NCBI GenBank assembly: GCA_030324005.1
Contig: JARDVH010000042.1
Coordinates: 76,403,695 to 76,467,694 of the forward strand
From: Negaprion brevirostris
Lineage: Eukaryota
Length of the DNA stretch: 64,000 nt
Direction of reading: 5' to 3'
Below the pieces are notes generated by a model. The model was given only the letters and a program-made list of their open reading frames with translations, was not told where the DNA came from and did not search any database. Within the stretch, counting starts at the first letter, position 1. Each line of letters starts with the position of its first letter. The translations under genes were made by a program, and so were the position numbers. Shown piece after piece: positions 2,558 to 64,000 of this stretch.

Positions 2558-5500
2558 ACAGATAGCCCAAATTTTAAGCCTTATTTTCACAGACATGTTG
2601 CCAAAGCTATCTTGGACTTGTTCTTTTCTATTAAAAGTTAATATGTCCAAAATTTTCTGTTGAAACAAATGTTCACTGAGCTTCAGCAGCTGTGTGGAGC
2701 ACTTTTCACCAAGGCATGCCTAAACCCATTTGGGATTAAACACAACTTGAAAAATTCAACAACAATCCAGAAAAATTCAGGGAAAGTTGGAATTTGGGGC
2801 AGTGAAAGCTACATTATTAGTGGCCAAATTCAATGTATCAGTGAGACACGTTGTTCCAATTTTAAAAATCTCAATAAAATAATGGTCCATTAAAATATCT
2901 CAGAGGCTTAATTTCCTCAAACTGCATTTGCATAAAATTAATTTCACCCTTTTCCTGTGTTTTCAGTTTTGGACGGATGTGTTGGTCGACTAATAGCTGG
3001 AGGATGTGAGTCATGTGATGAACCTTCAGGAATATCTTCAAACACAGTTGGCAACGCAGGAATACCCTTGCAGCAGAGAGACAGGTGAGAGTTTATTTGG
3101 ATTTAATAAATCAGAGGATGAGAAAGGCCATTTTCCCACTTTAGTTACCCCCTCTGATATTCTGACGTTGTAGTTCGGCACGTCCACCATTCTGAATGGC
3201 AGATTATTGCTTATACAACATGCCTCTTTTGTTCAGTTCCAAACATTCAGAAACAATTAGGTAAATTGTTGCCTTCATCGTATGGGTGGTAATCTTATGG
3301 AACTGATCAATATCAGAGCCAATCATCTTCCCATTAAAATTAATGGATAAAATTAAAATGGGTATGTTCTATAATGAGAGAAATGAACTGCTCCTCAAGA
3401 TTAATGTACATGCAGTGAAGACAATGATTCATCTCACTGCCTCTTGTTTGTACAATAGATGGATCTCACTAATGGAATCAACAACAAAAACTGATCTCAT
3501 TCCAGCATAAACAAATCAATCACCAGCAGCCTGCTGCCTGTGATTTTAATTAAGTACAGATTGAGTCTAGCACTCCTTCTCATCACTGCTAAATCAAACT
3601 GAAATGAGGTGGTAACATGCAGAATAACTCACCTCTATTATTTTTGAGAAGTTTTTTTGCCTTTTTTCAATTTTGATTTATAAGGTGAAGAGACCTGTCT
3701 ACTCTTCACTTCATAAATCAAAGTTGAAAAACGGCAAAAAGACTTCTCAAAAATAATAAGGATGACTTGTTCTGTATGTTACCACTTCATTTCAGTTCGA
3801 TTTAGGGATGAACTTGACCTCTTAGATGATAAATGCACCGGAAGGTGTGATGTACAGATACCATGCAGATGGTCCAGGAGGCCCAGGTTAAATCCTGAGC
3901 TCTGCTGAGCTAGGTGATCTCAACTAGGTGGTAGTACTGCCTTTAGCCCCAGCATTGTCATCCTTCAAGGCTTGCATATTGAACGCTTAGACGTTAATCT
4001 CTATTAGAGCTTGCACATGTATGAATATCAAAGGATATAAGCACAACCACGCAGATTTTGGACAATTTGTCCTACACTTACTTTAATTTTTTAAATGGAC
4101 TTAGAGTTTTTCCTAGCAGGTCGAAAGCCAGCTCTGGAGTGCAGCTTAAAGTAAATCAGTGGATGTGGCAATACAGTTCAGCCCCAACTCACTCAGGGCA
4201 CAATTACACACTAACACTCAAGCTCTTGAAATAAGCATTCTTTTGCCTTCAAGTCTCATCTAATAACTTTGTTAGTAATGCTCTACTGAAGTTTCTAGAG
4301 GAAATAACAAATTAAATGTAGTTTTCAACTTTCTTGTTAAGAGAGTAATGCAGGGGAACTTTCGGTTTTCATATGACCAATGTTTCTATAAGATGCCAAA
4401 AAGCTATTCACACACTGTGATAATGAACCTTGCTCTTTTGAAGCTTTTAAAGACTGTTTCAAGGATTTGTATGTATATTTCAGCTAATCCATTGGTTGAT
4501 GGATGATAAAGTGTGGATTTTATATGTTGGACACCATTTACTTTGAGATTATCACCAGATTCTTGTGAAGTAAATCATGGACCATTATTGCTAACTATCT
4601 GTTCTAATTTACCAAATTTTGTAAAAAAAGTCATTAAGTTTTTTTAATGGTTCATTCAGATGTAGTGGATCTCATGAATACACCTTCTGGCCACTTTGCG
4701 CATCAATGATGACCAAGAACACGCAACCCTCAAATGGATCACCAGCATCTACATGCAAATATTGCAATGGCATTTTAGGCCATTCCCAAGGTTGTAAAGG
4801 AGATAACAATGGCATATTTCTTATTCATGCACAGGACTAACACTGTCCAACTTTTCTTCACCCTGAGAATCCAGATCAGGCCATTAAAAATAGCTACATG
4901 CTAATTACTTCATTGGACCACACCAGGATGTCCTTCATTTCAAGAACTCTTCCACGTGGAGTAGGAGGAATGATCGCTCTGATTCTCCACAATAGACATT
5001 CACCTTGGATGGTCAACTCAAGCTTCTTGACACATATCAAATGAGGATATGTAATGATGCGTTCCAGCTATTGTTCCTTTCAGTACCAGATCCATTACCT
5101 TCCCCTTCACAGCATTATTTGTGGTATGCCTCTGAACTTGAGAAGCTGTCACAGGCAAATGATCCACCAGCAAAAAATGAAGAATGTTAACAAAACTAGT
5201 TGGTGGAATTTGCTCAATAGGTAATGGTAAGCATGATAATGCATTAACATTAGACTCTGATTGATGGCACTTTATATCATAAGTGTGTGCAGATAAGATC
5301 AGTGACCATATTTGCAATTGGCTAGCAGATAATGGCCCAAATAGTTAAGGTTTGGTAATCAGTCAATAATGTTGCTAAGTTAGAAACAAATTTGCCATGA
5401 TAATTTACTCATCTTAGAAAGGACCTGAATTGCATCAATTTACTGGACGTGGTACTTCTAAAATATTTTTAGCTACTTTATGTAGCCTTCACTATCAATA

Positions 5501-5773: not shown

Positions 5774-6345
5774 CTACGAATATGCTTGTGAAAGATCAGT
5801 TTTGCTGAATTCCTGCCCACCCGATAACCCAGCAAACAAATCTTCAATTAAACGAAGCAGATATTGATTAGCACCAGCACACAATACTGGATTTATGGTT
5901 GTTTTAAAATTACCATAAATATGAACTGAACCATCTGATTTTGTGACATCTTCTAATGATTCACCAAACTTGCAATGTTGTGTCAGCCTTTCTAAGGTTA
6001 TCACTAAATGAGCAGTGATTTTGTCTTCCATTTGATTCCTTTGGTGGAACCTGAACCGTTCCGTGATGATCAGTGGCTTTGAAGAGTACTGCTCTTCAAG
6101 GATCTTTGTCAAATTATCATACATTATGGTTCCTGGCTTTGCTGGCTGAACTAAGCGTTGGAGAAAACTAAAGGTTTTACTTCCTATTGTTCTGGAAAAA
6201 AACTAGACGAGCAACTTGTTAGTAATTTTATTCATTTGTATAAAATACTGGAAACTCTCTCATAGGAACTCCATGATTCATTTTCCTCATATGGATTATT
6301 ATTATTATGGATCATAATGGACCCATCATTTCTCTTGCAGGCACC
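5774..6345 (-). mobile_element. Internally deleted Ty3/Gypsy LTR retrotransposon (gag N-terminus fused to an RT fragment)
   Basis: gag motifs IGSKTFSFLQRLVQPAKP and KPLIITERFRFHQRNQ...HCKFG, followed directly by RT motifs VTKSDGSVHIYGNFKTTINPVL and IEDLFAGLSGGQEFSKTDLSQAY. Confidence 0.85.
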
Positions 6346-7479: not shown

Positions 7480-7916
7480 AAGGACTTAGAGAGAGTACAG
7501 GGCTAACATGTTCCAATAGAGAAAAAGGGTGGGACCAACGAATCCAGTGAACCCTGGATATTGAGGGTTAAAAGAGGAAAAGGATGGCTTATGGCAGACA
7601 TCGAGGGCACAAAACAGCAGAAGCCCGAGAGGAGTATAGAATATGCAAGAGGGAACTTAAAAATTGAATTAGGAGAGCAACATGGGGACATGAAAGGACA
7701 CTGGCAGGTAAAATAAAGGAAAATCATAAGTTGTTTGAAAAGTATGCTAAGGGTAAAAGGATAACTAGGGAAAGAGTAGGGCCCATTAAGCACTATAGTG
7801 GCAATTTGTGTGTGGAGCCAAAGGACGTAGGTAGAGTTCTAAATGGGTGCTATTCGGATTGGCGGTTGGTGACTAGTGGAGTGCCCCAGGGGTCGGTGCT
7901 GGGGCCTCAGCTATTT
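7480..7916 (+). mobile_element. CR1-type LINE ORF2 fragments running into an assembly gap
   Basis: KGKRITRERVGPIK...GNLCVEP and WRLVTSGVPQGSVLGPQLF. Confidence 0.8.
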
Positions 7917-8361
7917 NNNNNNNNNNNNNNNNNNNNNNNNNNNNNNNNNNNNNNNNNNNNNNNNNNNNNNNNNNNNNNNNNNNNNNNNNNNNNNNNNNNN
8001 NNNNNNNNNNNNNNNNNNNNNNNNNNNNNNNNNNNNNNNNNNNNNNNNNNNNNNNNNNNNNNNNNNNNNNNNNNNNNNNNNNNNNNNNNNNNNNNNNNNN
8101 NNNNNNNNNNNNNNNNNNNNNNNNNNNNNNNNNNNNNNNNNNNNNNNNNNNNNNNNNNNNNNNNNNNNNNNNNNNNNNNNNNNNNNNNNNNNNNNNNNNN
8201 NNNNNNNNNNNNNNNNNNNNNNNNNNNNNNNNNNNNNNNNNNNNNNNNNNNNNNNNNNNNNNNNNNNNNNNNNNNNNNNNNNNNNNNNNNNNNNNNNNNN
8301 NNNNNNNNNNNNNNNNNNNNNNNNNNNNNNNNNNNNNNNNNNNNNNNNNNNNNNNNNNNNN

Positions 8362-8508
8362 AACCATTATCTTATAATTGAGTTTGTGTCTATATATGCT
8401 CTGTTTGTGAACAGAACTCTTCACTCACTTGATGAAGGGGCAATGCTCCAAAAACTTGTGCTCCCAAATAAACCTGTTGGACTTTAACCTGGTGTTGTGT
8501 GAGTTCTA
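8362..8508 (+). mobile_element. Penelope-like element terminal repeat (family 1), degenerate
   Basis: ...TGATGAAGGGGCAATGCTCC...AAATAAACCTGTTGGACTTTAACCTGGTGTTGTG. Same terminus as the GIY-YIG-bearing copy at 19160-19540. Confidence 0.75.
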
Positions 8509-8509
8509 A

Positions 8510-9805
8510 ATGAACATTTTGTATCGGTGTTCACTAGTGAGAGAGATAATGTGGGTATAGATATCAGAGAAGGACGGTGATAAAATTAAATAACTTGATA
8601 TAGGCAGAATGAAAGTTCAGAGCGACCTGGCAGGCATAATAATAGATAAATCTCCAGGACCAAAAGAAATGTATCCTTGGCTGTTGAGTGAGGCAAGGGA
8701 AGAAATAGCAAGGGCTATGGCAATAATTTTCAATTCCTCTCTGACCACAGTAGAGGTGCCTGGGTGGGGAGGGGGCGGGATTGGTGCTAGAGGACAGTCG
8801 ATTTGGCACCATTATTCAAGAAAGAGAGGATGGGGTAAACCAGGAAACTGCACACCAGTCAGTCTAACCTCAATGGTGAGGTAAGTATTGGAAGCAATTC
8901 TGAGAAACAGGATTAATTTGCACTTGGAGAGGCAAGGATTAATCAAGAACACTCGGCATGGTTTTGTTAAGGGGGGTTCATATCTGACCAACTTGATTGA
9001 AGTTTTTGAAGAGTGGCCAGGTGTATAGAAGAGGGCAATGCATTTGGTGTAGTCCTTTTGGACTTCAGCAAGGTTTTTGACAAGGTCCCACATGGGACAC
9101 TGATAGTAAAGGTAAGAGCCCGTGGGATCCAAGAAAATTTGGCAAACTGGATTCAGAATTGGTTAAGTGGCAGTAAATGGACGGTGATGGTCAAGGGGTG
9201 TTTTTGTGACTGGAAGATTATCCAAAAATTTTGCGGATGATACGAAAATTGATGAGGTGGTAAACAATGAGAGGATTGTGTGCAGTTCTGGAACCCACAT
9301 TATAGGATGGATGTGATAGCAGTAGAAAGAATGCAGAGGAGATTTACCAGGATATTGCTTGGGCTGGAGAGTTTTAGTTATGAAGAGAGATTGAATAACG
9401 TATTGTTTTCCTTGGAGCATATGATGTGTGAGGTTGGGTGAGTATTATTGAGATGTATAAAATTATGAGGGGCACAGATAGAGTAGACAGGAAGAAACCT
9501 TTCCCCTTGGTGGGGGGACCATTGACCAAGCTTAATGATTTAAGCTTAAGGGGCAGAAGATTTAGAGGGGATTTGAGGGTAAACTTTTTCATCCAAAGGT
9601 TAGTGGGAGTCTGGAACTCACTGCCTGAAAGGACGTTGGCGGCAGAGACCATCGTAGCATTCAAGAAGTATTTAGACGAGCACTTGTGATGCTAAGGCAT
9701 ATAAGGTTATGCACCAAGTGCTGGAAAATGGGATTAGAATAGTTGGGTGGCACAGAAAAGGCCGAAGGGCTTTTTTCTATGTTGTACACTTCTAGGATTC
9801 TATGA
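8510..9805 (+). mobile_element. Decayed CR1-type LINE ORF2 and 3' end
   Basis: DKSPGP.EMYPWLL.EAREEIA, PGNCTPVSLTS, LDFSKVFDKVPHG, NFFIQRLVGVWNSLPE. Tail ends ...GATTCTATGACT. Confidence 0.85.
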
Positions 9806-18645: not shown

Positions 18646-19159
18646 GAGGATCGCCCTTGCACCTTTTGCGTGGCTGAACAGTGAACGTGAGAGTTGATAA
18701 TGGCACAATGAGGTTAACAGGACCTGCAGAACTGGGCTGGGCAGAGCAATTAATTGCATGTNNNNNNNNNNNNNNNNNNNNNNNNNNNNNNNNNNNNNNN
18801 NNNNNNNNNNNNNNNNNNNNNNNNNNNNNNNNNNNNNNNNNNNNNNNNNNNNNNNNNNNNNNNNNNNNNNNNNNNNNNNNNNNNNNNNNNNNNNNNNNNN
18901 NNNNNNNNNNNNNNNNNNNNNNNNNNNNNNNNNNNNNNNNNNNNNNNNNNNNNNNNNNNNNNNNNNNNNNNNNNNNNNNNNNNNNNNNNNNNNNNNNNNN
19001 NNNNNNNNNNNNNNNNNNNNNNNNNNNNNNNNNNNNNNNNNNNNNNNNNNNNNNNNNNNNNNNNNNNNNNNNNNNNNNNNNNNNNNNNNNNNNNNNNNNN
19101 NNNNNNNNNNNNNNNNNNNNNNNNNNNNNNNNNNNNNNNNNNNNNNNNNNNNNNNNNNN

Positions 19160-19540
19160 GCCTCAACAGGGATCTTGGGTTCATGTCACACTATCTGTAA
19201 CCCCCATGACTTGCTTGGGCTTGCAAAATCTCACTAACTGTTCTGGCTGGAGACAATACACATCTATTTAACCTGTGCTTAATTCTCTCTCCACTCACAT
19301 TGTCTGTACCTTTAAGAATCGATGACCTGTAAAGACTCACATTCCAACCATTATTTTGTAAATTGAGTTTGTGTCTTTATATGCCCTATTTGTGAACTGA
19401 AATCCCACTCATCGAATGAAGGGGCAGCACTCCGAAAGCGAGTGGCTTGTGCTACGAAATAAACCTGTTGGACTTTAACCTGGTGTTGTGAGACTTCTTC
19501 CTGTGTTTACCCCAATCTAACACCAGCATCTCCACATCAT
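19160..19540 (+). mobile_element. Penelope-like element (family 1) 3' end with terminal repeat
   Basis: ORF end LNRDLGFMSHYL* (typical C-terminus after the GIY-YIG domain), followed by the terminal repeat and the tail ...GCATCTCCACATCAT. Confidence 0.8.
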
Positions 19541-28979: not shown

Positions 28980-29209
28980 CTGACAGTCAAGATGTGGAGA
29001 TGCCGGCGTTGGACTGGGGTAAACACAGTAAGAAGTCTGACCACACCAGGTTTAAGTCCAACCAATTTATTTGATAGTAAATTCACAAGCTTTTGGGGTT
29101 TGCCCCTTCATCATNNNNNNNNNNNNNNNNNNNNNNNNNNNNNGTTTACTATTAAATAAACTGGTTGGACTTAAACCTGGTGTTGTCAGACTTCTGACAG
29201 TCAAGATGT
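28980..29209 (-). mobile_element. Short Penelope-like insertion (family 1) with inverted terminal repeats and a 16-bp target-site duplication
   Basis: Terminal repeat in opposite orientations on either side of a small gap. CTGACAGTCAAGATGT occurs at 28980-28995 and 29194-29209. Confidence 0.8.
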
Positions 29210-33610: not shown

Positions 33611-33736
33611 CTATAGAATGGTGCAAGGTTTTTTATCCTTGAAAGGGTTTTCAGAGGCTGGCACTCCAACGAGCAATGGGTCATTCCGTGCATGCTGTTC
33701 ACAGTAGTTCATCAAATCTACAGCTGCCTTTGATAC
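33611..33736 (-). CDS. GNG7: G protein subunit gamma 7, last coding exon
   Basis: Acceptor TTGACAG|GTA. Translates to [41 protein letters not shown], with the GGL-domain DPLL and NPF motifs and a CaaX end. Joins 56047 in phase 0. Absent from the supplied ORF track. Confidence 0.96.
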
Positions 33737-37458: not shown

Positions 37459-39042
37459 AAAATAAAAGCAAAATATTGCAGATACTAGAAATATAAAATA
37501 AAAACAGAAGGTTGGGCAGCTTCTGTGGAGAGACAAACAGAGTTAAGGCTCTGAGTCCATATGACTTCTTCAGAGCCAAAGGGAGAAATGTAATGATTAC
37601 ATATTGTGTAAGAGGGACTGGAGCAGAGTAGTCAGTGATTGGTGGGAGCAGTATCTGCTGTATCTGCAAAGGGAGAGAAAAGGTAAGGAAAGGGAGGATA
37701 AAATAGGGGGAAAGACTGGGGGGGGAGAAGAAAAATAAAGAAGCAAAAAGTAGACAACAGTCAAAAATTATGTGAAATGAAAACAAAGGGGTTGAGGTGG
37801 GGTAGAGCTAATCATCTGGAATTGTTGAATTCAATGTTGAGACTAGAAGGTTGTAAAGTGCCTAGCTGGAAGATGAGATGCTGTTCCTCCAGTTTGCACT
37901 GAGCTTCACCTGAACATTGAAGCAGGTCAAGGACAGACATGTGGGCATGGGAGCAGGACTGTGTGTTAAAATGGCAAGCAACTGGACGGTCAGGGTCCTG
38001 ACTGCGCATAGACCAAAGGTGCTCAGCAAAACGGCCACCCAGTCTACGTTTGGTCTCTCCGATATAAAGAAGACCACATTGGGAGCAGCAAATGCAATAG
38101 ACAAAATTGAAAGAGGCAGAAGTGAAATGCTGCTTAACCTGGAATGAGTGATTTGGACCTTGGATGGTAAGCATAGAAGAGATAAAGGGGCAGGCGCTAC
38201 ACATTCTGCGATTGCATGGGAAGGTGCCATGGGCGATGGGAGAAGTGTTGGGTATAGTGGAGGAGTGGGCTAAGCTATCCCGGAAGGAATGAACTCTGTG
38301 GAACGCTGACAGAGGAAGTGAAGGGAAGATGTGTTTGGTGGTAGCATCATGTTGGGAGTTGATGAAAGTAGTGGAGGATTATGTTTTGCACGTGGAAGCT
38401 GGTAGGGTGAAATGTGAGAACAAGGGGGACTCTATCCTTGCACTGGGAGGGGGTGGGGGTCATGGCGCAGGGGATGGATTGCATGCTGTTGAAGGCCCTG
38501 TCGATAACTGTAGGTTGGAAACCACGGTTGAGGGAGAAGGAGCACATATTAGAAGCGCCACTTTGGAAAGTGGCATCATAGGAACAAATGCAATGTAGGC
38601 GAAGGAACTGAGAGAAAGGGGTGGAGTCTGTCTGGATGTAGGGTGCAAAGAGCTGTAGTCTCGATAGCTGTGGGAGTCAGTGGGCTTGTAATGGATATAG
38701 GAAGGTAGTCTATTGCCGGAAATGGAGATAGAAAGGTCTAGGAAGGATAGGGAAGTGTGTGAGATGGACCAGGTGAAGATGATGGAGGGTGGAAACTGGA
38801 AATAAAGTTGATCAAGTTTTTCAGATCTGGGTGAGAGCATGAAGCAGCACCAAAGTAGTCATTGATGTACTGGTAAAGAAATTGTGGGAGGGGACCCGGG
38901 TAGGCCTGGAACAAGGAATGTTCCACAACCCATAAGAAGACAAGCGTAGCTAGGACTCATGCAGGTACCCATTGCTACTCCTTTGATTTGAAGAATGTGG
39001 GATCTATTTCAGATTCCAGCATCCGCAGTAATTTGCTTTTAT
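37459..39042 (-). mobile_element. Penelope-like element (family 2): decayed RT plus GIY-YIG endonuclease, with terminal repeat and inverted 5' repeat fragment
   Basis: RT remnants YQYINDYFGA and FLDLSISISGNRL..IHYKPTDSHSY. GIY-YIG motif VYCICCSQCGLLYIGETKRRLG.RFAEH...PVA.HFN. Ends are inverted (AAAAGCAAAATATTGCAGAT / ATCCGCAGTAATTTGCTTTT). Confidence 0.9.
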
Positions 39043-47455: not shown

Positions 47456-48264
47456 TCCCTGCACAGTAAGAAGTCTCACAACACCAGGTTAAAGTCCAAC
47501 AGGTTTATTTGGTAGTAAACGCCATTAGCTTTTGGAGCGCTGCTCCTNNNNNNNNNNNNNNNNNNNNNNNNNNNNNNNNNNNNNNNNNNNNNNNNNNNNN
47601 NNNNNNNNNNNNNNNNNNNNNNNNNNNNNNNNNNNNNNNNNNNNNNNNNNNNNNNNNNNNNNNNNNNNNNNNNNNNNNNNNNNNNNNNNNNNNNNNNNNN
47701 NNNNNNNNNNNNNNNNNNNNNNNNNNNNNNNNNNNNNNNNNNNNNNNNNNNNNNNNNNNNNNNNNNNNNNNNNNNNNNNNNNNNNNNNNNNNNNNNNNNN
47801 NNNNNNNNNNNNNNNNNNNNNNNNNNNNNNNNNNNNNNNNNNNNNNNNNNNNNNNNNNNNNNNNNNNNNNNNNNNNNNNNNNNNNNNNNNNNNNNNNNNN
47901 NNNNNNNNNNNNNNNNNNNNNNNNNNNNNNNNNNNNNNNNNNNNNNNNNNNNNNNNNNNNNNNNNNNNNNNNNNNNNNNNNNNNNNNNNNNNNNNNNNNN
48001 NNNNNNNNNNNNNNNNNNNNNNNNNNNNNNNNNNNNNNNNNNNNNNNNNNNNNNNNNNNNNNNNNNNNNNNNNTAAACTGTGTGTGCCTTTATATGCCCT
48101 GTTTGTGATCAGAATTCCCCACTCACCTGACGAAGGAGCAGCGCTCCAGAAGCTAGTGGTGTTTACTACCAAATAAACCTGTTGGACTTTAGCCTGGTGT
48201 TGTGAGACTTCTTACTGTGTTTACCCAGTCCAATGCCGGCATCTCCACATCATGTCCCTGCACA
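47456..48264 (+). mobile_element. Penelope-like insertion (family 1) with inverted termini and a 10-bp TSD
   Basis: Inverted terminal repeats of about 85 bp flank a gap. TCCCTGCACA occurs at 47456-47465 and 48255-48264. Confidence 0.8.
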
Positions 48265-56046: not shown

Positions 56047-56124
56047 CTTGATCCTTTCAATACCAGCTTCAATCCTTAACTGTTCCACCATTTTCCTTGC
56101 CTGTGCTATGTTGTTCGTTGACAT
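56047..56124 (-). CDS. GNG7: G protein subunit gamma 7, first coding exon (the exon starts at 56153 with 29 nt of 5'UTR)
   Basis: [26 protein letters not shown] followed by donor AAG|GTAAGA. Upstream acceptor is a pyrimidine tract ending ATCCAG at 56154. Residues EQLRIEAG and VGVPAS match GNG7 rather than GNG12. Confidence 0.96.
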
Positions 56125-56829
56125 TATCACAGTTTATCCAATAGGCCAACTTTCTGGATAAAAAAGAAACAAATCATTAATTATCATAAAAGGCAGAAAC
56201 ACAAAAATATTTATGACAACAGAAATTATGGTATCAACTTTTATGGCAGGTTTAGTGGTATTCCTAAATATATATATTTTGAAAAAAATTGCAACTTAAA
56301 AATCACTAGGGTACTGGAAATTTGGCAGATTCCTACTCCTGTTAGCTATCTAATCATTCTTGATGGAAACTGGATGTTAGATGAGGACAGTCTAGCACTC
56401 AATTGTGAAAGTGTGTTGACCCTGTCTATCCTCAAAATACACAGAAAGTGCCCATTTACCTCAAAAGCAGGAAGAAAAGTCAGAGGAAAATTCAAAACAT
56501 CTTCTATTTTCTTGGAAAGATTAAAACCAAGGGCTAGATTTTGGGCTCTCCTGCTCACTCACTCTGTGTTTCAGGTGGGCGTCACTGTCTACCTGCCAGA
56601 TTATACCAGTGGTGAGATTTAATCCATGGTGGCAGAGACCTAAGCCATATGCCCTGCTTGGCAACATTCCATCTGCAGGACAGGGGGCGGGGTGTCCTTA
56701 TCCTGCTGATAGGGAGGGCCGTCAGGGTCCTTCCAGGTTCTCCTGCCTCCACCACCGGCCTTTTTACCCTGGTCCACCCTCACCAGAGCCAGCCATCCAG
56801 GTCTGGGCGAGATCCCCAACACTTACCTT

Positions 56830-57166
56830 GGGCGGCATAGTAGCACAGTGGTAGCACTGCTGCTTCACAGCTCCAGGGACCTGGGTTCGATTCCTGGGTT
56901 GGGTCACTGCCTGTGTGGAGTTTGTACATTCTCCTCGTGTATGTGTGGGTTTCCTCTGGGTGCTCCGGTTTCCTCCCACAGTCCAAAGATGTGCGGGTTA
57001 GGTTGATCAGCCATGCTAGATTGCCCTTTAGTTTGTGATGCTTAGGTTAGAGGGATTAGTGGGTAAATATGTAAGGCTATGGGGGTAAGGCCTGGGTGGG
57101 ATTGTGGTTGGTGCAGACTCGATGGGCAAATGGCCTCTTTCTGTACTGTAGGGTTTCTATGATTTC
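56830..57166 (+). mobile_element. HE1-type SINE, full length, CR1-like tail
   Basis: A box GGCATAGTAGCACAGTGG, B box GGTTCGATTCC, core and tail ...CTGTAGGGTTTCTATGATT. Confidence 0.85.
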
Positions 57167-57221
57167 TGTGCTGAATACTGGATCCAGAGCTGCATGCCTT
57201 CCTCTCTGCTTTCTACGGTGT

Positions 57222-57330
57222 CACAGTAAAAAGTCTGACAACACCAGGTTTTCGTCCAACCGATTTATTTGATAATAAACTCACAAGCTTTCGGGGTTAG
57301 CCCCTTCGTCAGGTGAATGGAGAGTTCTGG
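57222..57330 (-). mobile_element. Penelope-like terminal repeat (family 1) entering a gap
   Basis: CACAGTAAAAAGTCTGACAACACCAGGTT...GTCCAAC...TTTATTTG, homologous to 29025-29114 and 47462-47547. Confidence 0.8.
57280..57317 (-). ncRNA. Minimal type-I hammerhead ribozyme motif in the PLE terminus
   Basis: Minus strand reads TTCAC-CTGACGA-A-GGGG(CTAA)CCCC-GAAA-GC-TT-GTGAG: helix I, CUGANGA box, helix II, GAAA box and a UH cleavage site. Confidence 0.7.
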
Positions 57331-58415
57331 NNNNNNNNNNNNNNNNNNNNNNNNNNNNNNNNNNNNNNNNNNNNNNNNNNNNNNNNNNNNNNNNNNNNNN
57401 NNNNNNNNNNNNNNNNNNNNNNNNNNNNNNNNNNNNNNNNNNNNNNNNNNNNNNNNNNNNNNNNNNNNNNNNNNNNNNNNNNNNNNNNNNNNNNNNNNNN
57501 NNNNNNNNNNNNNNNNNNNNNNNNNNNNNNNNNNNNNNNNNNNNNNNNNNNNNNNNNNNNNNNNNNNNNNNNNNNNNNNNNNNNNNNNNNNNNNNNNNNN
57601 NNNNNNNNNNNNNNNNNNNNNNNNNNNNNNNNNNNNNNNNNNNNNNNNNNNNNNNNNNNNNNNNNNNNNNNNNNNNNNNNNNNNNNNNNNNNNNNNNNNN
57701 NNNNNNNNNNNNNNNNNNNNNNNNNNNNNNNNNNNNNNNNNNNNNNNNNNNNNNNNNNNNNNNNNNNNNNNNNNNNNNNNNNNNNNNNNNNNNNNNNNNN
57801 NNNNNNNNNNNNNNNNNNNNNNNNNNNNNNNNNNNNNNNNNNNNNNNNNNNNNNNNNNNNNNNNNNNNNNNNNNNNNNNNNNNNNNNNNNNNNNNNNNNN
57901 NNNNNNNNNNNNNNNNNNNNNNNNNNNNNNNNNNNNNNNNNNNNNNNNNNNNNNNNNNNNNNNNNNNNNNNNNNNNNNNNNNNNNNNNNNNNNNNNNNNN
58001 NNNNNNNNNNNNNNNNNNNNNNNNNNNNNNNNNNNNNNNNNNNNNNNNNNNNNNNNNNNNNNNNNNNNNNNNNNNNNNNNNNNNNNNNNNNNNNNNNNNN
58101 NNNNNNNNNNNNNNNNNNNNNNNNNNNNNNNNNNNNNNNNNNNNNNNNNNNNNNNNNNNNNNNNNNNNNNNNNNNNNNNNNNNNNNNNNNNNNNNNNNNN
58201 NNNNNNGCGTTGCTCAATAACATGCTATCAATCATATTTCAACTGGAATCATTTGTCTACGAAAGAAGCTATTTTAAAATCAAAATACTGGTTAGATAAG
58301 TTAGAATTCTCTGTGTAATTTTCAGCTGTGATTAAGTGGCTCTGGGTTTCACTACAAAAAACCTTACAATGAAATAACCTAATTTCAAAACCTCTCTGAA
58401 CATATTTGATAGTCT

Positions 58416-58502
58416 TTGTAAGTCTAAGTTAATAGCATCGCTTTACAATACAATATTTTGTAAGTCTGTGTCATTAGCATCGCTTTACAATACAATATTT
58501 TG
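58416..58502. repeat. Tandem duplication with a ~42-bp period
   Basis: TAGCATCGCTTTACAATACAATATTTTG is identical at 58433-58460 and 58475-58502. Confidence 0.85.
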
Positions 58503-59034
58503 AAAATTTAAGCAAAATATGATAATGAAAAAAAACAAAAAACTCAGTGGAACAATGTAACATTAAAAACTCCAAAGAAAGTGGATACAAAATTAACACG
58601 AACTGCAACTAGTAATCTGGTGTTGGAATCAACCCATTAGAACTCTATCCTTAACATTGAGTTCATTAACATGTATGATTCATGTCACAACAAACCCAGG
58701 TTAGAGTGAGTTTGTTAAGATACTGATGCATTAATACTTTGTATGAAACAATATGCTTCTTAAGATTTCTAACTTGTACCTAGACAGGTCTGCATTGCAG
58801 TTTTGTCTGATGAAGCAATAATGTTTCGTTGTGACTGCTCATTGTGTCATGATGTGTATAAGCGATATAAACTAGTAAAAATCATTATTTTTAGTGAGAT
58901 GCATACTAATGGGCTTGATTTTCAATCTGGGGTTAGAGATCCATTGCCCAGATAAATTTGGGGTTCTGACCCTGCAACTCTACCTTCAAATCATAATGCT
59001 CTAATTGGGTTGGAGGTGAACTTGGCATTCAGTT

Positions 59035-59290
59035 ACAAAAACAGAAAATGCTGGAAAATCTCAGTAGGTCTGACAGCATCTGTGGAGAGGAAGAGAGCCA
59101 ATGTTTCGAGTCTGGTTGACCCTTCGGCAGAGCTAAAGACAAAGAAAATAGAATGAGATTTATACTGTAGGAGAGGGGGAGGAAGGGGGTTGTGTGATGA
59201 CCAAAATGTCATAGACAAAAAGCCAAAGGGAACATAAATGAGTGGAGGGTGCTAATAGCATCCATTAAGAGATCGGAATGGCATTCAGTT
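59035..59290 (-). mobile_element. Penelope-like terminal repeat (family 2) with a near-intact hammerhead motif
   Basis: AAAACAGAAAATGCTGGAAAATCTCAG.AGGTCTGACAGCATCTGTGGAGAG, homologous to 37500-37580. Confidence 0.7.
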
Positions 59291-59892
59291 AGTGGTGCCG
59301 AGCTCCGTGAGGAGGTAGCAGCTGCCTGCAAGTGAAATGGCATCAAAAGCAGATGGCAGCCATGAAGAGGTACAATTGAGGAGGCTGTCCAGCACAAGAG
59401 AGGAGGCTGGAATTCGGAGGGCCTAAAGCCTCAGCATCAAATGGTCAGCCAAGTGCCCAATCTCACAGCGAAACCCCTGATTTAAAAAAATGTTGCAGCT
59501 TCCTGCATTAACTGCAACAGTTGTGCATTAATCTGCACCAAGTTGTTTTTGTTTTGCAAGTTCCTACTTGAAAATTGGCCCATGACCCTCCCTGGCCAGT
59601 TTATAATCTCTACAAACATCTTAAAAGGAAGGTATACTGGAGACGGGCCGGTTTGCAATCGCCCCCGTCCCCCCCCCCGCCCCAACTTTCTTTTGAAAAC
59701 AGCATTATGCTTTGCAGGAGTTAGAGTCCAATAACACTGTCCAGGTGTGAAAATTTCAGTGTGCACCTGCACTGCTATACACCTCTGTACCTCTAGTTGA
59801 AAATTCAGCCCATTAACTCAATGAAAGTACAATATGAATTAACATCTTTGTACATGACTAAAATAGTACAAAACTGTAAGAAAACATAAGAA

Positions 59893-60091
59893 CATAGACA
59901 TAGAAATCCTACAGTGCAGAAGGACGCCATTTGGCCCATCAAGTTTGCATTGACAACAGTCCCACCCAGGCTCTATCCCCACTNNNNNNNNNNCCCAGGA
60001 AACTCAGGGTTAATTTAGCATGTCCAATCAACCTAACCCGCACATCTTTGGACTGTGGGAGGAAACTGGGGCACCCGGAGGAAACCCACAC
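59893..60091 (-). mobile_element. HE1-type SINE, 5'-truncated
   Basis: CCTACAGTGCAGAAGGA.GCCATT...TTTGGACTGTGGGAGGAAAC...GCACCCGGAGGAAACCCAC. Confidence 0.75.
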
Positions 60092-60509
60092 AATGGCTTG
60101 ACCAGAGTAACATTCAAATCATTGCTTTTCTGTGTTACTCTGAATGTAACATAGAATTTGTAGTTTTTGATTAGACATTTCTCAGATATGGTACTGGAAT
60201 TTTATGTTTTCCCCAAGGGAGAGTGAGGAGGCCATTAAGTGGCCAATTAATGGAATTTACTAGCAGTGGGAAAGCCCAATGCCATATCTCCAGGATGTCC
60301 AGCAGGACCTGTCAGCCTGGTGGACAGTTCAGGGTGGATAGGGAATGGTGTGTTGGGGAGAGAGTCTGGGGGGCTTCTGGTAGGACATTCTGCCCATTGG
60401 CAGCCTGCANNNNNNNNNNNNNNNNNNNNNNNNNNNNNNNNNNNNNNNNNNNNNNNNNNNNNNNNNNNNNNNNNNNNNNNNNNNNNNNNNNNNNNNNNNN
60501 NNNNNNNNN

Positions 60510-62200
60510 AGCCTCCACCACTTCAATGGGCAAAGAATTCCAGAGATTCACCACCCTTTGAGTGAAGAAGTTCCTCCTCAACTCCGTTCGAAACTGGACC
60601 CCCCTTATTTTGAGGCTGTGCCCCCTAGTTCTGCTATCCTTTCTAAGCGGGAAGAATCTCTCTACCTCTACCCTATTTAGCCCCTTCATTATCTTAGATG
60701 TCTCTATAAGATCCCCCCTCAGCCTTCTAAAGTTTAATGAGTACAGGCCCATTGTGGGTGTACTTACACCATAAGGGCTGCAGCGATTCAAGAAAGTGGC
60801 ACACCAACACCTTCTGAAGTGAAATCAGGAATGGTCGAATGCCAGCCTAACCAGCAATGCCCATATCCTGTGAACAAATAAAACAGACCTTTTAAAAATC
60901 TATGCTGCACTTCTTCCAAGCCCAATATACCTTTCCTCAGATGTGGCAGCCAGAACTGCTCTTAACAGGGCTTTGCATTGCTAACACTTGACCTCCGCTC
61001 TTTTTACTAACCTTTTGATATTTTTTGTACCTTTCCATGACATTTTAATGATCTGGGATTCTTGGACCCCTAGCCGCTTTTCAGCTCCATTGCTTGTAGC
61101 TTTTCACCTTTTAGAAAGTACTTTGATCTATCCCTTTTAGGTCTAAATTGGATGACCTCACACTTGCTTGTAATGAAATCTATTTGCTCAATTTTTCCGA
61201 TTCACATATTCTATTAATATCTCTTTGCAATTTTACGTTTCCATTTACATTGCTTCGAATGTCACCTATGTTTGTGTCATTGGCAAACTTGGGTGTACGG
61301 CTGTCTATTCTGTATTCCAACTTGCTAATATAGATAACTATGGGACATTAATAGTCACATCTTGCTAATAAGGTTACCTACCCATTGTCCCTACTCAGCT
61401 GAGCCAATTTCCTAATTAGGTCAATTCAAAGATCTTCAACTTCAGTCACCAGTCTTTTCTTACAGACCTTATCCAAAACTTCTGGTAGTCTGCATTAATT
61501 AGATTCATCAGACATTGACCTCCACTTTACAAATCCACACTAGCTCTCTCTCTAATTAGTTGAAATTTTTCAATATTCAGTCTTCTATCCTTAATTATAG
61601 ATGCTGGTCATGCTCACCTGACTGGTTTATAATTCCTTTAATTCCCTCTTACCTTCCTTAAATAGCATAGTGACATGCAATTTTTCAATCTGAGGGAACA
61701 GTTCCTCAACTGAGAAAATCTCAGAAGATTATAGTTAGCGCAAGATGATCCCAGGATGAAAACAGTCTGGTCCTGGAGATTTGTCTTTCATGAACTGTAT
61801 TCTTCATTGCTATTAATTTCCTTACATTCATTACGATGAGTTTGAATTCCTGATTCAATGTTATATTCCTTGGGAGGTCCAGATTGCTGTTCTCTTCCTC
61901 TATTGTAAATAGTGATGCAAAGTAATTATTTCATAGGCTTGTCAATTCCTTATTTTTATTTAAATCACCATGATGAGATTTTAAGGGTCACATATTACCC
62001 TTAACATAACATAATTGCAAAAGTTTTTCAATTGATTTCGATAATGCTTGCTAGTTTATTCTTATATTTGCTTTTTGTAGCCTTTACTATATGTTTTATC
62101 AATCATTGCTGATCTACGCTTTTCTCTGATTCTGAGTTTTTTTCTACATTCATCTATGATTTTTCTTATGACTTGATATTGTTTGTGCCTTGTCTCTTTA
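60510..62200. mobile_element. Patchwork of LINE fragments: CR1 (minus, 60510-60750), LINE-B tail (plus, 60750-60885), older CR1 (minus, 60900-62200)
   Basis: GLYSLNFRRLRGDLIE..KIMKG...RTRGHSLKI...FFTQRVVNLWNSLP. LINE-B tail GCCAGCCTAACCAGCAATGCCCATATCC. Reverse KFANDT and KSPGPD remnants. Confidence 0.65.
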
Positions 62201-63689
62201 TTTCTCTATGGCTGTTTTTCTCAGCAAGAAGAGTTCATGTCCTTTAGAGATATAAACTTACAGCATAAATCCTCTTATGCAGTCTGTCACTGCCCTGGGC
62301 TCAGTATTTTACAAGCACAGAAATAAATAGTTTAATTAGAGCTTAAACGCCTTGTTAAGCTTCAATCCATCTCTAAAAATTGTACAATATGAACATAAAA
62401 CTGATGCAAAAATGTTAACAACGGCATCACTGAATAGCAGATCATGTAACGTACTGAATGTCTCTTATCTCTAGAAATATTTAACCTATGAGAGATACTC
62501 TCCTCACTTCTATCTTCAGCCTCACTGTTTTGCCTGACACAAAACAGACAACTTGTGTATGACTGCACAAATCTGATTCTTTACCTCGAAACGAACTCTG
62601 GCGTTTGCTTGGTCTGCAGTTACCATTGAAACAATGGATTTACAGATTCCTTCAACAGACTAAATACATTTTTGCTATTGGCCAACTCTTGTCCACTTAC
62701 AAATAGCACAAAATAAAAAAGTGAATCTTTTATCCCTTCCATCTCTCAGAGTTACCTATAAATTGTGCAACACTATCTTAGAGTTCCCTATTGTCAACAC
62801 TAACAGCAAGATAGAAGGTGTGAATTCTCCAGCTCAGTGCAATTATGCAGTTACTCAGATTAGGGAAATGCCCAGGTCTCTGGAGCAAAAACTAATTTAT
62901 CGGGGGTGTTTTGATGACACGGACAAATATGCTTTTTCCAAGCAATATTTCCTGTTTTTATTTGAGGATGAAATTCCTGGAATTTTAATTATATGGAAAA
63001 AGTACACACCAGTACAGAGGAATACCAGTTCATATTCGTGTCAACCTGTTTGCTAAACTCCAAGATTGCCGCAAAGTTTAGAATTGCAGGATAACGTCAA
63101 GTGAGGAGATACAGAAACAATTTAACGGTTTTATGCAGTGGGTAGGGAATATGTGGAATAGACCAACAAAGAGACAGACTGCAGAATTATTTATGGGAAA
63201 ACTGGATAGATGTTTGCGTGCTTTGGTGTTTGGGGAATATTCTGGGAATACCAATATGAGCTGTAGAGCCTTTTCCAGNNNNNNNNNNNNNNNNNNNNNN
63301 NNNNNNNNNNNNNNNNNNNNNNNNNNNNNNNNNNNNNNNNNNNNNNNNNNNNNNNNNNNNNNNNNNNNNNNNNNNNNNNNNNNNNNNNNNNNNNNNNNNN
63401 NNNNNNNNNAAGTTGGTGCTTCTGATTCATGGTACATCTAGACTAAAGTAATTCATGGAAAATTTAGTTGTCCATAATTTGAGTGCATTCATTCTCACCA
63501 TAGATACAAATATGTTTTTTTATATGCCAGTACAAAAATTTGATCATTTGATTACGACGATGAAAGATCTCAGGCCCTTACTGTTAACTTTGGCCCCAAA
63601 CTTATCTTTGGAGCAGGGTGGAGTTAGGAACACCCTGGAAGTACTGAGTTCTTGAATTTCAAGAAAGCCAAGCTGTAAGCAGGTAAAAT

Positions 63690-63950
63690 CAGAAAATAGT
63701 ACACCATAGTACAGTTTATTTGGCCCATCAAGGTTTGTTTTCGCTCTTGCAAAGAGCAATTCAGTTGCTTGTACTCCACTATTCTCAGCCCATGTCAAGA
63801 CTATTAGAGGATCTGTATCCACCACTCTTTCAGCCAGTGCATTTAAGCACTCATGAGTTTTTAAAAAGATTTTTGTCTTGTTTGGTACTTTGCCAAACAC
63901 CTTCAATCTATGCCCTCTGATTTACTCTTCCATCATCAAAGAGGGAAATT
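63690..63950 (-). mobile_element. Old CR1-type LINE 3' fragment
   Basis: TTTGGCCCATC...GTATCCACCACTCTTTCAG.CAGTGCATT...CTTCAATCTATGCCCTCTG, matching the reverse CR1 3' end. Confidence 0.55.
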
Positions 63951-64000
63951 CTACCAGAACTCCTAATCAGTTCCTTTGGGCCTGAATCCCGGACTTGATA

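Follow-up and report, generated by a model that had tools for sequence, protein, structure and literature searches.

Does a hammerhead ribozyme motif that a transposon presumably left in a host gene act on the transcript of that gene, or does it persist there as a relic? We met this question in a window of 64,000 nucleotides of the Negaprion brevirostris genome, to which all positions below refer. On the minus strand near 57.3 kb, a minimal hammerhead ribozyme (min-HHR) with an unmutated core lies in the same orientation as GNG7, a G-protein gene. The analysis presented here leads us to regard it as an intact min-HHR at the end of a dispersed repeat copy, likely a truncated Penelope-like element (PLE), likely situated in a 5' intron of GNG7 and probably inert.

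Structure of the hammerhead motif

Positions 57279-57318 of the minus strand make up a minimal type-I hammerhead motif in which both catalytic boxes and the UH site are unmutated. The six pairs of helix I join 57318-57313 to 57284-57279; one of them is U-G and one A-U. Its 5' strand leads into the first catalytic box, C3 (57312) to A9 (57306), which together with an unpaired A at 57305, bulged between 9 and 10.1, occupies 57305-57312. Helix II (57293-57304) is built of four G-C pairs, 57304-57301 with 57296-57293, around a 4-nt loop, with pair probabilities of 0.97-0.99. It opens with the G10.1-C11.1 pair (57304/57293), present in six of six copies with letters at this place. The second box (57285-57292) runs from G12 (57292) to A15.1 (57289), continues through a palindromic stretch 15.1-16.1 (U16.1 at 57286), which would form a 4-bp helix III in a dimer, and ends with H17 (57285); the predicted cut falls between 57285 and 57284. 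Positions 15.2-16.2 are palindromic too (G-C, 57288-57287) and give no helix III in a monomer. The sequence-only reading had already given this minus-strand sequence, its coordinates, boxes and 4-bp helix II, and our analysis bears it out, helix I being six pairs long instead of five. In folding calculations, the inner pairs of helix I and those of helix II reached probabilities of 0.75-1.0 in four sequence contexts, and a single copy was unable to form helix III.

Cervera and De la Pena (2014; PMC4209133), in the part of their article available to us, characterize metazoan Penelope min-HHRs by an additional base between 9 and 10.1, the G10.1-C11.1 pair, a palindromic 15.2-16.2 and variation at the level of families. 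The motif at 57.3 kb resembles these ribozymes in its type I arrangement, boxes, bulged base, G10.1-C11.1 pair, palindrome and lack of helix III. Judged by its sequence, it is a member of this class by every feature tested, just as had been claimed. Its helix II, four pairs closed by a tetraloop, is shorter than in the Schistosoma examples, where it measures 7-8 bp. Cartilaginous fishes go unmentioned in the part of the article available to us and may be covered by its supplements; these aside, we found no literature on elasmobranch Penelope hammerheads.

When both strands were scanned, the motif was the sole strict descriptor match in the window. Among 300 dinucleotide shuffles, a match occurred in eight when at least four pairs in helix I and at least three in helix II were demanded, and in three at the stricter setting of at least five and at least four. 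Folding energy of the 38-mer (z -1.97) is unremarkable by itself, the values with flanks being -1.02 and +0.51, and the bare box pattern with one mismatch allowed stays at chance level (6 observed vs 6.2 expected). The search with hammerhead models suggested by the sequence-only reading gave a divided answer: the strict descriptor matched, while Rfam, scanned over all of the window at E<=10, gave 13 matches, none of them a hammerhead. An absent Rfam match is no argument against a minimal form. With no hammerhead among the Rfam matches, weak z-scores and bare boxes at chance, it is the full descriptor that supports the motif, together with the repeat family in which it is embedded.

Host gene and position of the motif

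Both coding exons of the host gene are on the minus strand. The first (56047-56153) is preceded by an acceptor AG at 56155-56154, has its ATG at 56124 and is followed by a GT donor after 56047; the second, through the stop codon, covers 33611-33736. Together the coding stretches, 56124-56047 and 33736-33611, specify a G-gamma domain, which matches PF00631 with an E value of 1.6e-14. Among 68 matches, the best named one for the second coding exon is gamma-7 with 95% identity, vs 76-83% for proteins named gamma-12. At the level of sequence, identity of the host gene as GNG7 is confirmed. PDB matches, among which gamma-2 is named, were also tried for the paralogue call and did not resolve it.

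From the motif to the start of this first coding exon (56153) we measured 1127 nt, in agreement with the distance of about 1.1 kb given before, and the shared orientation of motif and gene, both on the minus strand, was confirmed as well. One further copy of a short repeat (see below) is located between them. A pyrimidine tract and CAG precede the start of the exon, which is only 29 nt ahead of the ATG. No CpG island was detected in the window, and the observed/expected CpG ratio in 56154-56820 is 0.16. A literature search on untranslated exons and introns of GNG7 found none. In mouse, exons 3-4 of Gng7 are the coding ones, and the three main transcripts described in the available part of PMC11100332 all begin at or before non-coding exon 2. 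The earlier judgement that the motif is probably intronic is in line with the acceptor, the missing CpG island and the mouse gene, and we grade a position in a 5' intron of GNG7 as likely.

Family A repeats and the anatomy of their insertions

The motif stands at the end of a dispersed repeat, here called family A, of which seven pieces are present in the 64 kb, at 8.4, 19.4, 29.1, 29.15, 47.5, 48.1 and 57.3 kb. Scans of the whole window and rescans of 57150-64000 and 1-56400 yielded the same seven. Pairwise identity ranges from 73 to 95%, and the nearest relative of the 57.3 kb copy within the window is that at 29.1 kb (88% identical). Over the copies of the window, every cell scored for helices I and II holds a pair (36 of 36). 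Covariation, evaluated over seven rows, showed two-sided change in one of eight pairs and is not significant, 188 of 500 shuffles scoring as high.

Two insertions of this family are fully resolved, and both consist of inverted arms around a gap within target duplications. The one at 47456-48264 (cores mutated) comprises a tail-less arm on the minus strand (47462-47547), a gap and a tailed arm on the plus strand (48074-48253); the arms, pieces 47.5 and 48.1 kb, are enclosed by a 10-nt duplication (47456/48255). The other, at 28980-29209 (core mutated), has a tailed minus-strand arm, a gap and a tail-less plus-strand arm (pieces 29.1 and 29.15 kb) inside a 16-nt duplication (28980/29194). A tail of 34 nt is found at 48220 (plus strand) and 29023 (minus strand), and the opposite arms are devoid of it. 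The plus-strand copy at 19160-19540, with a mutated core and a diverged tail, opens with 12 codons and a stop and has no convincing target duplication. Another plus-strand copy (8362-8512), tail-less and with a mutated core, closes an insertion on its right side. This insertion has a 12-nt duplication (7834/8501), begins on the left with another LINE piece and interrupts a LINE-like frame at 7668-8600 on the plus strand, which we take to be of CR1 type.

The repeat end that carries the intact motif (57222-57330, minus strand) lacks the 34-nt tail and stops at exactly the base where the inverted arm at 47462 ends. It runs into an assembly gap of 876 N (57331-58206), which starts 12 nt upstream of helix I and goes unmentioned in the sequence-only reading; this gap would contain the rest of the insertion and may hide an antisense or a tandem partner. 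Because this copy is tail-less like the inverted arms of the two resolved insertions, the gap may hide an antisense partner. Of the three tail-less ends that are resolved, two belong to inverted arms, and the third, at 8.4 kb, is not visibly of this kind. On balance we somewhat favour the view that the 57.3 kb copy is a tail-less inverted arm with its antisense arm within the gap. The search for its target duplication, in which the best match was 8 nt and none was convincing, counts against our explanation. Outside the gap, no other family A copy was found in 57150-64000, and head-to-tail tandem units were not visible in 1-56400 and 57150-64000, the interior of the gap excepted. Shortly past the gap, at 58430-58505 on the minus strand, there is a tandem duplication of about 42 nt.

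Each of the gaps 7917-8361, 18762-19159, 29115-29143, 47548-48073 and 57331-58206 is adjoined or enclosed by a family A insertion. As all five insertions touch gaps, short-read assemblies apparently conceal insertion interiors. According to the part of PMC8557442 at our disposal, Penelope insertions are troublesome for short-read assembly, PLEs often form partial tandems, and Penelope anatomy includes an inverted 5'-truncated copy and a tail of 30-40 bp at one end. PMC11167929 accounts for the tail by two sites at which reverse transcription can start, the tail reaching from one to the other.

Considering their anatomy together with the ribozyme, family A repeats are likely Penelope pseudo-LTRs. 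The proposal of a Penelope terminal repeat is supported by insertion anatomy, and an attempt to link it to an element ORF failed: when the 12-codon stub of the 19.4 kb copy was compared with 160 proteins related to family B (see below), 211 of 300 shuffles scored as high. The 12 codons and stop at 19160 may represent the terminus of this ORF, and we presume that they resemble Penelope endonuclease ends. The family A pattern gave no match in metagenome and viral contigs.

Other repeats in the window

A second family (family B), which does have the ORF, is represented at 37500-39010 on the minus strand by a decayed Penelope-like element. It lies in GNG7 sense within the intron that separates the two coding exons and comprises RT fragments and a GIY-YIG domain (37815-38378; Pfam E 4.4e-4, slightly under the curated cut-off). 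There are relatives that bear RT, the best named matches being in rays and a shark, which points to a cartilaginous fish as the likely source of the window. The GIY-YIG domain has a cysteine motif, C-x4-C-xx-C, of Neptune/Nematis type, as described in the relevant part of PMC8557442. A decayed hammerhead-like end is located near 37.56 kb. Another min-HHR relic, likely of family B, occupies 59094-59136 (minus strand); A6 is changed, the one change in its first box, and 15.2-16.2 is non-palindromic.

An abundant short interspersed repeat, presumably a SINE, occurs in both orientations at 6.4, 12.2, 18.4, 46.6, 51.4, 54.4, 55.2 and 60.0 kb (repeat groups D1, D3, D4, D6, D7, D12, D13 and D15). A 142-codon frame at 5774-6202 on the minus strand we take to resemble a gag/pol piece of an LTR retrotransposon. 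At 3589-3805 there is a long hairpin with 104-nt arms, 88% complementary, and a 9-nt spacer; it has sub-threshold matches to Rfam miRNA families and is possibly a small inverted-repeat element.

Decay of the catalytic core

Five family A copies have both catalytic boxes readable, and the core is unmutated in one of them. The claim that the 57.3 kb motif is the sole unmutated one in the window thus holds for readable copies, gaps masking parts of two more. G12, which is located within a CpG, reads A in four of the six copies where it is visible. Change of G to A at CpG is the usual outcome of methylation decay.

The probability that all 13 core sites stay intact was calculated as 0.45 at 6% divergence and 0.25 at 10%. 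Compared with the one in five actually seen, these values imply that selection is not needed to account for the intact core. The core would be intact since this copy is presumably only a few per cent away from its source. Its local CpG observed/expected ratio of 0.56, vs 0.22 for the window, is in keeping with youth, but retained CpGs fit constraint as well.

Discussion

How would an intact ribozyme come to be inert? In the parent element, as the literature suggests, two tandem copies would swap helix I strands, their palindromic 15.1-16.1 bases would pair to create helix III, probably aided by the element protein, and the dimer would then cut after H17. At the 57.3 kb site, a monomer is computed to form helices I and II without helix III. 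If the gap holds an antisense arm, transcription would reach this arm before the motif, and the two would pair into a long hairpin in GNG7 pre-mRNA. The motif would leave with the spliced intron and be degraded uncut.

Calculated energies are compatible with this course of events. Two copies of the 57.3 kb motif in the active double-hammerhead fold reach -22.3 kcal/mol, two monomers -23.2 and the best dimer -28.6, so that the active dimer has no advantage over two monomers and falls short of the dimer optimum by 6 kcal/mol. For a duplex of the motif with a same-subfamily antisense arm we computed -137.6 kcal/mol, and for the arm pairs actually present -164.7 (47/48 kb) and -77.3 (29 kb). On inspection, neither of two candidate dimer partners proved suitable. 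The family B relic at 59.1 kb shares the strand of the motif but has a change at A6 and helix strands that do not fit; in the arm at 47.5 kb the core is mutated and the helix I and III strands are mismatched.

PMC4209133, in the sections accessible to us, reports thousands of min-HHRs per genome, mostly single, with some opposite-strand pairs 100-700 bp apart; the monomer is inactive and dimers cleave little. The PAc ribozyme of the anole Poseidon element is uncut without its protein (Frangieh et al. 2024; PMC11167929); in the portion of that study available to us it is dispensable for insertion in vitro, and no RNA-seq reads ending at the cut site are reported. Family A resembles PAc in having a hammerhead near the element end and a tail of 34 nt, that of PAc being 30-40 bp between two end points. 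PAc, however, belongs to a complete element with its protein, whereas of the 57.3 kb insertion only an end fragment is visible, in which no ORF is seen. The significance implied by the sequence-only reading has not been borne out: chance suffices for the intact core, no same-strand copy that could serve as a partner is visible, and min-HHRs in the literature stay uncut as monomers or without element protein.

The gap might instead hold a tandem copy on the same strand, as a partial-tandem pseudo-LTR or a short retrozyme array, and a competent double hammerhead would then cut GNG7 pre-mRNA weakly, as an unselected accident. Beginning only 12 nt from helix I, the 876-N gap is roomy enough for a unit, and the palindrome required for a dimer helix III is unmutated. 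There are parallels too, partial tandems being frequent in PLEs (PMC8557442, as far as its text was available) and chondrichthyan tandem retrozymes having a mean unit of 363 bp (bioRxiv 10.64898/2026.07.22.740005, likewise in part). Non-LTR retrozymes share with our motif type-I hammerheads, dependence on dimers in vertebrates, kinship to PLE pseudo-LTRs and frequent intronic location, according to the same preprint and the pertinent part of PMC7229834. Yet retrozymes are tandem units of 170-400 nt with circular RNA, whereas family A has no visible tandem and both of its fully resolved insertions are inverted. A hidden copy would also need an intact core, seen in one of five, the active dimer is not the favoured fold in our computations, and published dimers are weak (PMC4209133, in the sections accessible to us). 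We regard such an arrangement as improbable.

Transcription of GNG7 might also start between 57280 and 56153, leaving the min-HHR relic outside the transcript. An upstream exon was not identified within the window, as one would expect in that case; the pyrimidine tract and CAG ahead of the ATG, the lack of a CpG island and the mouse transcripts, which start ahead of the coding exons, make so late a start unlikely. It would concern the position of the motif only and leave its reading as a relic unaffected.

Still less is to be said for the view that the 57.3 kb copy was domesticated and regulates GNG7 pre-mRNA, similar to the conserved intronic hammerheads of amniote RECK. Orientation, a distance of 1127 nt from the acceptor and the unmutated core would suit this role, and amniotes offer precedents for domesticated intronic hammerheads in the part of PMC6155905 available to us: like those of RECK, CTCL and DTNB, our motif is likely within an intron of a vertebrate gene. 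The amniote cases, however, are type-I motifs conserved across species, whereas the 57.3 kb motif, without helix III, sits in the unmodified repeat end of a decaying family, 88% identical to another copy. Nor does its intact core require selection, and intronic copies are common, comprising 42-44% of Xenopus retrozymes (bioRxiv 10.64898/2026.07.22.740005, in the part available). Domestication is thus very unlikely. Finally, a chance match, for which the missing Rfam hammerhead, weak z-scores and chance-level bare boxes could be cited, can practically be dismissed: the full descriptor appears in only 3-8 of 300 shuffles, other family A copies carry decayed versions with the same helices in the same place, and the family alignment thereby largely refutes it.

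The inert relic that we favour is, as found, one more copy of a class of RNA described in 2014. It would gain importance only if GNG7 pre-mRNA were cut, in which case a transposon ribozyme would be acting on a host G-protein gene and would offer a way to address the in vivo role of min-HHRs, which is still an open question. One may go further and imagine that element protein or a hidden tandem activates intact sense-strand intronic min-HHRs, so that the pre-mRNA is cut and GNG7 output becomes coupled to transposon activity, with inverted-arm insertions escaping purging by means of a silencing hairpin. We consider this highly speculative and hardly to be expected. A modest general question, testable across the genome, is whether intact sense-strand intronic min-HHRs are enriched in inverted-arm insertions.
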